In this document: one piece after another, positions 2,807 through 48,067 of the stretch | How the letters are laid out: each line of letters starts with the position of its first letter | Position numbering within the stretch: the first letter of the stretch is position 1 | The notes under the pieces: generated by a model | The model's input: only the letters and a program-made list of their open reading frames with translations | What the model was told of the DNA's origin: nothing | The model's database searches: none | Program-made: the position numbers and the translations under genes | Source of the DNA: Escherichia coli | Lineage (GTDB): Bacteria > Pseudomonadota > Gammaproteobacteria > Enterobacterales > Enterobacteriaceae | Assembly (NCBI RefSeq): GCF_003334315.1 | Contig: NZ_QOWR01000003.1 | Length of the DNA stretch: 64,000 nt | Strand: one strand, 5' to 3'

Positions 2807-4114
<1,308 letters not shown>

Positions 4115-12423: not shown

Positions 12424-12440
12424 CAAAACCTCTCTATTAA

Positions 12441-12466
12441 AAAGGTGCTACGGCACCTTTTTTCTT
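12441..12466 (+). terminator. Intrinsic terminator after cyoE
   Basis: AAGGTGC-TACG-GCACCTT hairpin followed by TTTTTT, 18 nt past the cyoE stop. Confidence 0.8.
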
Positions 12467-14722: not shown

Positions 14723-16187
<1,465 letters not shown>

Positions 16188-16190
16188 TGT

Positions 16191-16228
16191 CGGATGCGGC
16201 AAACGTCGCATCTGACCAGATGCGACGT
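16191..16228. repeat. REP-like palindrome (12-bp perfect stem)
   Basis: CGGATGCGGC...ACGTCGCATCTG-AC-CAGATGCGACGT between the convergent 3' ends of yajL and thiI. Confidence 0.6.
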
Positions 16229-16240
16229 AAAAACCACAAA

Positions 16241-17689
16241 TTACGGGCGATATACCTTCACATTGTTAAAGCCCTGCTCGCGCAGATAGAGCGCCTGCAG
16301 ACGGCTCATCACCCCGCGCTCACACCACAGCAGCCAGGTTTTGTTCTGGTCGAGATCGCCAAATTTGGTGCTCAGTTTATAGAACGGCAGAGAAACCACA
16401 TCAATCCCTTCGACTTTCAGTGGCTTATCTTCCTGTTCATCGATAGAACGGATATCGAGGATCACGTCGTTCGGGCCGAAGCCATTGACGGTTTCCACTT
16501 CCACCACTTCCTGCTCGGTCTGCTGGGCGATTTCGCGGATATCAACGTTATTCGCTTCCTCAACCACTTTATCGAGAATGCTGAAGTCGAACTTCTCTTC
16601 TTCCGCTTCAATCTTCGATTTAACTGCTTTCACCGTCGGGCTTTTGGAGATCACACCACAATATTCCGGCATCGTGCGAGCAAAGTCTTCGGTGCCAATC
16701 TGGCGGGCCAGGTTGATGATGTGCTCTTTGTCGTAAGAGATCAGCGGACGCAGGATCAGCGTGTCGGAGACGTTATCAATCAGGCGCAGGTTGGTCAGCG
16801 TCTGGCTGGACACCTGGCCGAGCGCTTCGCCGGTGACCAGCGCCTGTACGCCGTAACGTTCAGCCACTTTAGATGCGGCACGCACCATCATACGTTTGAG
16901 GATAACGCCCATCTGACCGTCGTCGATTTTCTCGAGAATTTCCCCGACGACCGGTTCGAAATTAATAGCGACAAAACGCACGCGGTGGGAGCTGCCAAAG
17001 CGGTTCCACAGATAATGCGCCACCTGACGCACGCCAATTTCATGCGCCGCGCCGCCGAGGTTAAAGAAGCAGTAATGCACGCGGCAGCCGCGACGCATCA
17101 ACATATAACTGGAAACACCGGAGTCGAAACCACCGGAAATGAGCGACAGCACATCTTCCTGGGTGCCGATCGGGAAACCGCCAATACCTTCGTAGCGGCC
17201 TTTAATCAGCAGGAGACGATCGTCTTCCACTTCCAGATGGACAGTCACATCCGGATTGGTCAGCTTCACGCGCGCGGATTCAATATGCTGATTTAAACCG
17301 CCGCCGACGTAACGTTCCACATCAATCGAGCTAAAATCATGTTTGCCACGGCGCTTCACGCGTACGCAGAAGGTTTTGCCTTCCAGCTGATCGCGATACT
17401 GAACCAACGCTTTCTCGAAAATATCGTGCATGTCGGTAAACGGCACGTCTTCGACTTCGAGAATATGGTGGATACCCGGAATACGGGTCAGAGCGTCGCG
17501 AATAGCCAGACGCTGGTTTTCATCTTTTGCGCGAACTTCGATGTTATCCCAGTGGCGGACGACAGCGAGCGTCTCATCATAGTGCTTTAAAACGTTACGA
17601 ATGTTCCCGGTAAGGATTTTTATAAAGCGCAAGCGCACAGATTGGCTTTTGATGGTGATTTCCGGGAACAATTTAATGATAAACTTCAT
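16241..17689 (-). CDS. thiI: tRNA 4-thiouridine synthase / thiamine biosynthesis protein ThiI
   Basis: 482-aa ORF with PP-loop SGGFDS and C-terminal rhodanese-like domain. Confidence 0.96.
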
Positions 17690-28109: not shown

Positions 28110-28117
28110 TTATGAAA

Positions 28118-28146
28118 ATGCCGGGATTTATTCCCGGCATTTCTGA
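28118..28146 (+). terminator. Intrinsic terminator after tsx
   Basis: ATGCCGGGA-TTTAT-TCCCGGCAT hairpin followed by a T-rich tract, 9 nt past the tsx stop. Confidence 0.8.
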
Positions 28147-28170: not shown

Positions 28171-28270
28171 ATGCCGGATGCGGCGTAAACGCTTTGTCCG
28201 GCCAACAAAAGCACGTAAATTCAATATATTGCTGAAATAACGTAGGCCTGATAAGCGTAGCGCATCAGGC
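28171..28270. repeat. Two REP elements (BIME)
   Basis: ATGCCGGATGCGGCGTAAACGCTTTGTCCGGCCAAC and GTAGGCCTGATAAGCGTAGCGCATCAGGC between tsx and yajD. Confidence 0.8.
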
Positions 28271-38270: not shown

Positions 38271-38305
38271 ACAATAAAAAACCACGGGGCATCGCAGCCC
38301 CGTGG
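38271..38305 (-). terminator. Intrinsic terminator after brnQ
   Basis: CCACGGGGC-ATCGCA-GCCCCGTGG hairpin followed by T-run on the minus strand, about 20 nt past the brnQ stop. Confidence 0.75.
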
Positions 38306-38326
38306 TTAAAACAAATGTTCAGTGAT

Positions 38327-39991: not shown

Positions 39992-40025
39992 ACTGCAAAG
40001 AAAATAAGCCAGCATCGGCTGGCTT
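39992..40025 (-). terminator. Intrinsic terminator after phoR
   Basis: AAGCCAGC-ATCG-GCTGGCTT hairpin followed by a T-rich tract on the minus strand, about 30 nt past the phoR stop. Confidence 0.65.
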
Positions 40026-40052
40026 ATGGCAATAAAAGATGACAAAGGCGGA

Positions 40053-47967: not shown

Positions 47968-48067
47968 TGCCGGATGCGGCGTGAACGCCTTATCCGCCCT
48001 ACGCGGTTCTGGCACATTTTGCAGGCCTGATAAGACGCGGCAAGCGTCGCATCAGGCATGATGCGCC
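47968..48067. repeat. Two REP elements (BIME)
   Basis: TGCCGGATGCGGCGTGAACGCCTTATCCGCCCTAC and GCAGGCCTGATAAGACGCGGCAAGCGTCGCATCAGGCATGATGCGCC between the convergent araJ and mak ends. Confidence 0.85.

Follow-up and report, generated by a model that had tools for sequence, protein, structure and literature searches.

A perfect palindrome on a degenerate REP element as the probable shared 3′-end hairpin of the convergent panE-yajL and thiI transcripts of Escherichia coli

The spacer between the convergent genes yajL (+) and thiI (-) of Escherichia coli carries a three-arm element built on the degenerate REP unit REP39, and the perfect palindrome within it probably acts as the shared 3′-end hairpin of panE-yajL and thiI, together with Rho and 3′ trimming. 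Existing catalogues already cover the palindrome, as a part of REP39 and as a bidirectional terminator mapped by experiment, so its significance is limited and goes little beyond annotation. The present analysis adds the three-arm anatomy, the location of half of the hairpin outside REP39, a strand asymmetry in which G-U pairs become C-A mismatches, and an indication of Rho-limited read-through. The locus would be a clean example of a mobile-element remnant serving as the common 3′-end hairpin of two convergent genes; the functional hairpin lies half inside and half outside REP39, and REP-based annotation alone would mislocate it.

The palindrome lies within a 53-bp spacer (16188-16240; positions refer to the window, that is, the whole 64-kb stretch of DNA analysed). 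An inverted-repeat search placed its left arm, ACGTCGCATCTG, at 16203-16214 and its right arm, CAGATGCGACGT, at 16217-16228, separated by AC. An exact palindrome with a 12-bp stem between convergent yajL and thiI had been reported in an earlier note made from the sequence, and this was confirmed: the arms are 12 nt each, 100% complementary and 2 nt apart. A 2-nt loop cannot close, so the RNA form is an 11-bp stem with a 4-nt loop, folding at -17.9 kcal/mol on the + strand (z = -7.1 against shuffled sequences) and -17.4 kcal/mol on the - strand (z = -5.4), with a stem GC content of 75%. It is the sole perfect inverted repeat in the window with arms of at least 12 nt and a spacer of at most 10 nt, and a chance origin was rejected, since such repeats averaged 0.03 per 64-kb window over 100 random sequences from a first-order Markov model. 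Window positions 16100-16330 are identical to MG1655, where coordinates are obtained as 459238 minus the window position.

On alignment, the left palindrome arm corresponds to the head arm of a REP that is degenerate yet complete. The REP-like left flank named in the earlier note, CGGATGCGGC, is present at 16191-16200. That flank had been described as lacking the usual REP 3′ half, which was mistaken, as the left palindrome arm is that half: arm 1 (16189-16200) pairs with GTCGCATCTGAC (16205-16216) through 12 bp including 2 G-U pairs, closed by the loop AAAC. On the - strand REP39 reads GTCAGATGCGACG-TTTG-CCGCATCCGAC-A-CTAC. Its best alignment among the canonical REPs of the window is with a Z2-type unit at 48021-48058. 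Head arm and loop match this unit at 19/22 positions, and arm 2 matches its GCGGCAAGCGTCGCATCAGGC portion (48038-48058) at 18/21. REP39 shares with Z2 REPs the head arm G(C/T)C(T/A)GATGCGACG, the loop TTGCCGC, the CTAC/GTAG tail and an extragenic position between convergent genes; it differs in its tail arm, where a 5-nt deletion (GTCTT) relative to the Z2 unit, followed by ATCCGAC-ACTAC against ATCAGGC-CTGC, shifts the pairing register, in two G-U pairs that replace the usual internal bubble, and in one extra base, the T at 16188, that separates GTAG from the stem. The canonical REPs in the window end in CTAC, CAAC or GTAC. REP39 thus shows a degenerate match to the unit consensus, a GTAG offset by 1 nt, an extragenic position between convergent genes and a curated name. 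Table S16 of Harris et al. 2026 (bioRxiv 10.64898/2026.03.23.713779) supplies that name and reports that the element overlaps MG1655 443004-443039 by 20 nt, from which REP39 would span about 16184-16218, as our own alignment also indicates. The features of the locus are listed in Table 1.

Table 1. Features at the yajL/thiI boundary, in window coordinates
Feature	Position	Strand	Basis or remark
yajL CDS (protein deglycase), last gene of panE-yajL	15597..16187	+	ORF; MG1655 yajL 443051..443641
yajL stop codon TAG	16185-16187	+	ORF
GTAG of REP tail (CTAC on - strand), overlapping the yajL stop codon	16184..16187	+	Read from sequence
Arm 1, GTCGGATGCGGC, tail-side arm of REP39	16189..16200		Inverted repeat, pairs with 16205-16216; part of + strand minimum-energy fold
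REP39 hairpin loop AAAC	16201..16204		16203-16204 double as outer pairs of the perfect palindrome
Arm 2, shared arm	16203..16216		16205-16216 = REP39 head-side arm; 16203-16214 = palindrome left arm
Arm 3, CAGATGCGACGT, exact inverted copy of arm 2	16217..16228		Almost all beyond the putative REP39 end (16218)
REP39, one degenerate Z2-type palindromic unit	16184..16218 (extent inferred)	-	Table S16 name and 20-nt overlap; alignment
Published overlap of convergent transcripts, bidirectional terminator no. 31	16199..16234		Table S16 row 31
thiI CDS (tRNA 4-thiouridine synthase), stop codon 16241-16243	16241..17689	-	ORF; MG1655 thiI 441549..442997
Rho termination region, thiI-strand transcript in antisense yajL	16010 (MG1655 443228 +)	-	Adams et al. 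2021, about ±800 nt resolution
Rho termination region, yajL-strand transcript in antisense thiI	16521 (MG1655 442717 -)	+	Adams et al. 2021, about ±800 nt resolution

Judged by the same alignment, the right palindrome arm (arm 3) is an extra, exact inverted copy of the REP39 head arm, an addition absent from any canonical REP unit. As in a BIME such as REP325 (yjdM/yjdN), the locus has two oppositely oriented REP head arms that face one another. A BIME, however, has at least two complete units that alternate and are joined by defined linkers, whereas this locus has one complete unit and a bare 12-nt arm without a linker motif; the distance from the CGCATC to the GATGCG core is 6 nt here versus 21 nt in the canonical BIME-2 array REP325, where a 13-nt linker lies between facing unit heads. 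Arm 3 as a truncated neighbouring BIME unit was rejected, since a 6-nt spacing needs overlapping units and no linker motif is present. Only 12 nt are left between arm 3 and the thiI stop codon. The non-consensus bases of arm 2 are mirrored in arm 3 (T16213:A18, A16203:T28), and a templated inverted copy of arm 2 would be a more economical origin of arm 3 than a truncated REP. A multi-copy three-arm family was also rejected, as the 50-nt element matches only this locus in 5426 E. coli genomes (the palindrome also matches itself on the other strand). The MG1655 RefSeq annotation has no feature in the spacer, which is uninformative because canonical REPs in 49 kb are equally unlabelled. An Rfam scan of 15800-16600 (E up to 10) returned only a meaningless miRNA match, at 16.6 bits versus a gathering score of 86. 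A sigma-70-like match on the - strand at 16174-16202 (TTGCCG, 17 nt, AATAAT; 9/12), directed into antisense yajL, overlaps REP arm 1; it is probably due to chance (2 in the 600-nt region versus 0.4 expected).

The two alternative hairpins of the element are predicted to differ between the transcripts. In yajL RNA (+), the REP hairpin (arm 1:arm 2) folds at -20.2 kcal/mol and competes with the palindrome (arm 2:arm 3) at an ensemble ratio of about 61:39. In thiI RNA (-), the REP hairpin reaches only -12.3 kcal/mol, because its two G-U pairs turn into C-A mismatches, and the palindrome has a pairing probability of about 1.0. The third arm would therefore matter mostly for thiI, where only the perfect palindrome gives a stable 3′ hairpin, and the thiI-side weakness of the REP hairpin may explain the retention of the extra arm. 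This asymmetry, good pairing in one transcript and mismatches in the other, offers a simple rationale for perfect palindromes between convergent genes.

Published transcript ends fall around the palindrome on both strands. Table S16 of Harris et al. 2026, which crosses 306 published bidirectional terminators with REPs, has in row 31 an overlap at MG1655 443004-443039 (36 nt). Its sequence, GGUUUUUACGUCGCAUCUGGUCAGAUGCGACGUUUGC, is given an 11-bp stem, a 4-nt loop and -17.4 kcal/mol, with no A counted in the 5′ flank and two U in the 3′ flank; the entry is classified as convergent, in a gap region, found in log and stationary phase, and assigned to the genes yajL:panE:thiI and to REP39. These coordinates put the 3′ end of thiI RNA at 16199 and that of yajL RNA at 16234, which is 4 nt and 6 nt beyond the stem, respectively, so that both 3′ ends flank the perfect palindrome symmetrically and not the REP39 hairpin. 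We infer from the layout of the table, as far as it goes, that its source list is the set of SEnd-seq overlapping bidirectional sites of Ju et al. 2019. The earlier note had left a choice between a degenerate REP and a bidirectional RNA 3′-end structure, and both hold together, given the Z2-type alignment and the Table S16 entry. It had also proposed 3′-end mapping as a check, which the published overlap answers in part: Adams et al. have no entry for 44299x-44304x in their curated Term-seq lists of 3′ ends, possibly owing to low expression, and the 3′ ends thus rest on one dataset. A literature search by gene names found no paper on a yajL/thiI terminator.

The hairpin is GC-rich, as in intrinsic terminators, and has neither a U-tract after the stem nor an A-tract before it; the flanks after the stem are UUUGCC on the thiI side and AAAAAC on the yajL side, and a scan of both strands for terminator-like sites (hairpin plus T-run) had no match. 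The lack of a U-tract noted earlier was thus borne out, and the hairpin is for this reason not a classical intrinsic terminator. Bicyclomycin data point instead to Rho (Adams et al. 2021, PMC7815308, supplementary file 2; 800-nt windows with about 15-100 reads). At 443228 + (antisense yajL), upstream/downstream reads were 78/23 untreated and 96/103 with bicyclomycin (Rho score 3.64, p = 1.2e-6); at 442717 - (antisense thiI) they were 78/15 and 99/94 (Rho score 4.94, p = 6.4e-8). The downstream/upstream coverage ratio thus rose from 0.29 to 1.07 on the thiI strand and from 0.19 to 0.95 on the yajL strand, and a ratio of about 1 under Rho inhibition suggests that the hairpin alone stops few polymerases, although the Rho scores rest on low counts and bicyclomycin can release unrelated antisense transcription. 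On both strands the Rho termination regions lie within 190-290 nt of the 3′ ends. The C/G ratio of the transcribed strand in the 200 nt past each 3′ end is 1.43 and 1.52 versus a window 95th percentile of 1.41, high C/G also being a general trait of antisense coding sequence.

Most likely, then, the hairpin defines and protects both 3′ ends and Rho does much of the terminating. Transcribed from either strand, the palindrome would form the same 11-bp hairpin as a common 3′-end structure. Polymerases that pass it would run into the opposite gene in antisense, through untranslated and C-rich sequence, where Rho would halt them within a few hundred nucleotides; 3′-to-5′ exonucleases would next shorten the RNA as far as the hairpin, which would shield the mRNA. 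This follows a general model in which Rho termination is diffuse and downstream, exonucleases trim the transcript, and a U-less stem-loop, often a REP, protects the 3′ end (Peters et al. 2012; Dar and Sorek 2018, PMC6061677). The yajL/thiI hairpin resembles such protective stem-loops in being stable, U-less and just upstream of the 3′ end, in having C>G sequence downstream, into which read-through is bicyclomycin-sensitive, and in involving a REP. Unlike them, a single hairpin serves both strands.

Hairpin pausing and head-on polymerase collisions may contribute to this scheme. A fuller version, in which the locus is a collision-type bidirectional terminator where the hairpin pauses RNA polymerase and head-on plus trailing co-directional collisions release it without Rho, is the foremost alternative, though a tentative one. 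The locus stands in the published list of overlapping bidirectional terminators (Table S16), a class described in a preprint of the laboratory behind Ju et al. 2019 (Wang et al., 10.1101/2022.10.23.513370), whose authors propose hairpin pausing plus collisions and state that bidirectional sites do not resemble intrinsic terminators and are independent of Rho. Like members of this SEnd-seq class, it has a 36-nt overlap centred on one hairpin, no A/U tracts and detection in two growth phases. Unlike the class as described, read-through here appears Rho-limited on both strands, and the return of the coverage ratio to about 1 under bicyclomycin suggests that Rho does much of the stopping. The collision model also predicts poorer termination for lowly expressed pairs, and both genes are at about 78 reads per 800 nt here (DirectRNA-seq). 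The two accounts are compatible and non-exclusive.

The element is almost universal in E. coli. The locus was found in 5425/5426 complete genomes, and at least 5417/5426 retain a stem of 10 bp or more. Exact-word searches gave three haplotypes that sum to this number: haplotype A, that of the window, with 12-bp arms (3212 genomes); haplotype B, A16203G, with 11-bp arms (2158 genomes); and haplotype C, T16213C, with a 10-bp stem and 6-nt loop (47 genomes). Loop and top positions vary among strains (C16200T, A16203G). The three-arm layout and an unchanged core, ACGTCGCATC/GATGCGACGT, recur in E. whittamii, E. albertii and a further Escherichia species, with differing loops (GC, TACAC, CGGCAC). 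Across the four Escherichia species and the E. coli haplotypes, variable columns number 0/18 in the palindrome core versus 12/23 in the rest of the spacer (Fisher p = 2.7e-4). Comparison with relatives had been a second check proposed at the outset, and it returned a core stem invariant in four Escherichia species. This invariance points to constraint; a covariation test on seven Escherichia sequences detected no compensatory substitutions in either helix, and conservation for that reason cannot separate RNA-structure from DNA- or sequence-level constraint.

The yajL stop codon varies across the genus. E. coli and E. whittamii use TAG, which sits inside the REP GTAG, and E. albertii uses TAA, having lost the REP GTAG (GTAA) and retained the palindrome; in the Escherichia species of locus L010 it is TGA, followed by a 9-nt insert before the hairpin. 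E. coli B-95.deltaA (L002 295-320; window 16176-16190) carries an 8-nt insertion at the yajL stop (TACGAGTAA|TCGAGTAG), which looks like a deliberate UAG-to-UAA replacement in an RF1-free strain that left the original GAGTAG and REP GTAG downstream.

The closeness of REP39 to the stop codon raises the prospect that it lowers yajL translation, with a stalled terminating ribosome leading to mRNA cleavage and trans-translation. Stop-proximal REPs stall terminating ribosomes, according to the gist of Liang, Rudd and Deutscher 2015 as relayed in PMC4513850. Arm 1 begins only 2 nt past the TAG, at 16189, and the REP39 hairpin is predicted to be strong in yajL RNA at -20.2 kcal/mol. Such stalling is reportedly confined to REPs within about 15 nt of the stop codon. 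Against this, arm 3 is an alternative partner for arm 2 and could ease the unwinding of arm 1, the L010 species has its 9-nt insert between stop and hairpin, and E. albertii has a changed stop codon. We consider the effect unlikely; it would moreover be additional and leave the palindrome unexplained.

A speculative extension, to which we give similarly little credence, is that arm 3 is a selected 'repair' of a damaged REP and that the three arms form a translation-sensitive, strand-specific switch kept across Escherichia. After the 5-nt deletion, the REP39 hairpin would have folded well in yajL RNA alone; inverted copying of the head arm, templated by a hairpin, would then have produced the perfect palindrome and restored a strong thiI 3′ hairpin. 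While a ribosome at the yajL stop covers arm 1, arm 3 would be a substitute partner for arm 2, so that the mRNA would still have a 3′ hairpin as translation terminates and might avoid the ribosome stalling that REPs induce.

Other genera fill the same slot with different structures. Salmonella, Enterobacter, Leclercia and Kosakonia have genus-specific REP pairs. Klebsiella (L017, L051, L064 and L069; about 3098-3130) has a bidirectional intrinsic terminator, AAAACGGCAACCCAGGGTTGCCGTTTT, which shares with the Escherichia version its position, the convergent yajL/thiI arrangement and a single symmetric hairpin, and differs in having A and T tracts on both sides where the Escherichia hairpin has none. 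The Klebsiella slot is thus a natural example of hairpin types swapped at one gene boundary. On comparative grounds, the yajL/thiI slot appears consistently to need a strong hairpin, for which Escherichia would use a REP remnant. Six Enterobacter loci (L028, L033, L036, L055, L060 and L063) have the repeat CCCTCTCCCCGTGGGAGAGGGCCGGGGTGAGGGC..., which we take to be boxC-like, in the spacer, sometimes beside a canonical terminator. In the Citrobacter freundii group (L018, L042, L049, L050, L053, L054 and L068), an extra small ORF starting ATGAAAGGATATCTGAGC (MKGYLS..., signal-peptide-like) lies between yajL and thiI.

These comparisons also bear on a role at the DNA level, or none in RNA, for the palindrome: a REP remnant for REP-associated transposase, gyrase or IHF, a cruciform or single-stranded DNA hairpin, or a neutral relic that corrects itself by template switching. 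REPs are believed to descend from hairpins mobilised by a transposase (Harris et al. 2026), arm 3 copies the non-consensus bases of arm 2 as templated copying would, and no covariation proves an RNA structure. The RNA 3′ ends, however, are symmetric around the palindrome and not around the REP39 hairpin, the core is invariant where loop and flanks vary, E. albertii lost GTAG and kept the palindrome, and other genera place unrelated RNA hairpins in the slot, including a classical terminator, which argues for an RNA 3′-end function. We therefore regard a purely DNA-level explanation as improbable. Least credible is a classical Rho-independent bidirectional terminator, for which the GC-rich 11-bp hairpin with its 4-nt loop and the three U after the stem in thiI RNA (GACGUUUGC) would speak, against the missing terminator-like site, the 0 A upstream and 2 U downstream counted in Table S16, the AAAAAC after the stem on the yajL side and the bicyclomycin sensitivity of read-through.

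Shorter perfect palindromes occur elsewhere in the window. Just after cyoE, a 10-bp example at 12439-12462, AAAAAGGTGCTACGGCACCTTTTT, has A and T runs alongside and looks like a classical bidirectional intrinsic terminator. Between yajD and tsx, an 11-bp palindrome at 28116-28142, AAATGCCGGGATTTATTCCCGGCATTT, corresponds to row 29 of Table S16. A degenerate Y-type REP lies 30 nt from it (28174-28207), and row 29 names no REP, so at yajD/tsx the REP and the terminator are distinct structures. Two more perfect palindromes, 10-11 bp long, follow brnQ (38280-38307) and phoR (40004-40027) and are presumably 3′-end hairpins.
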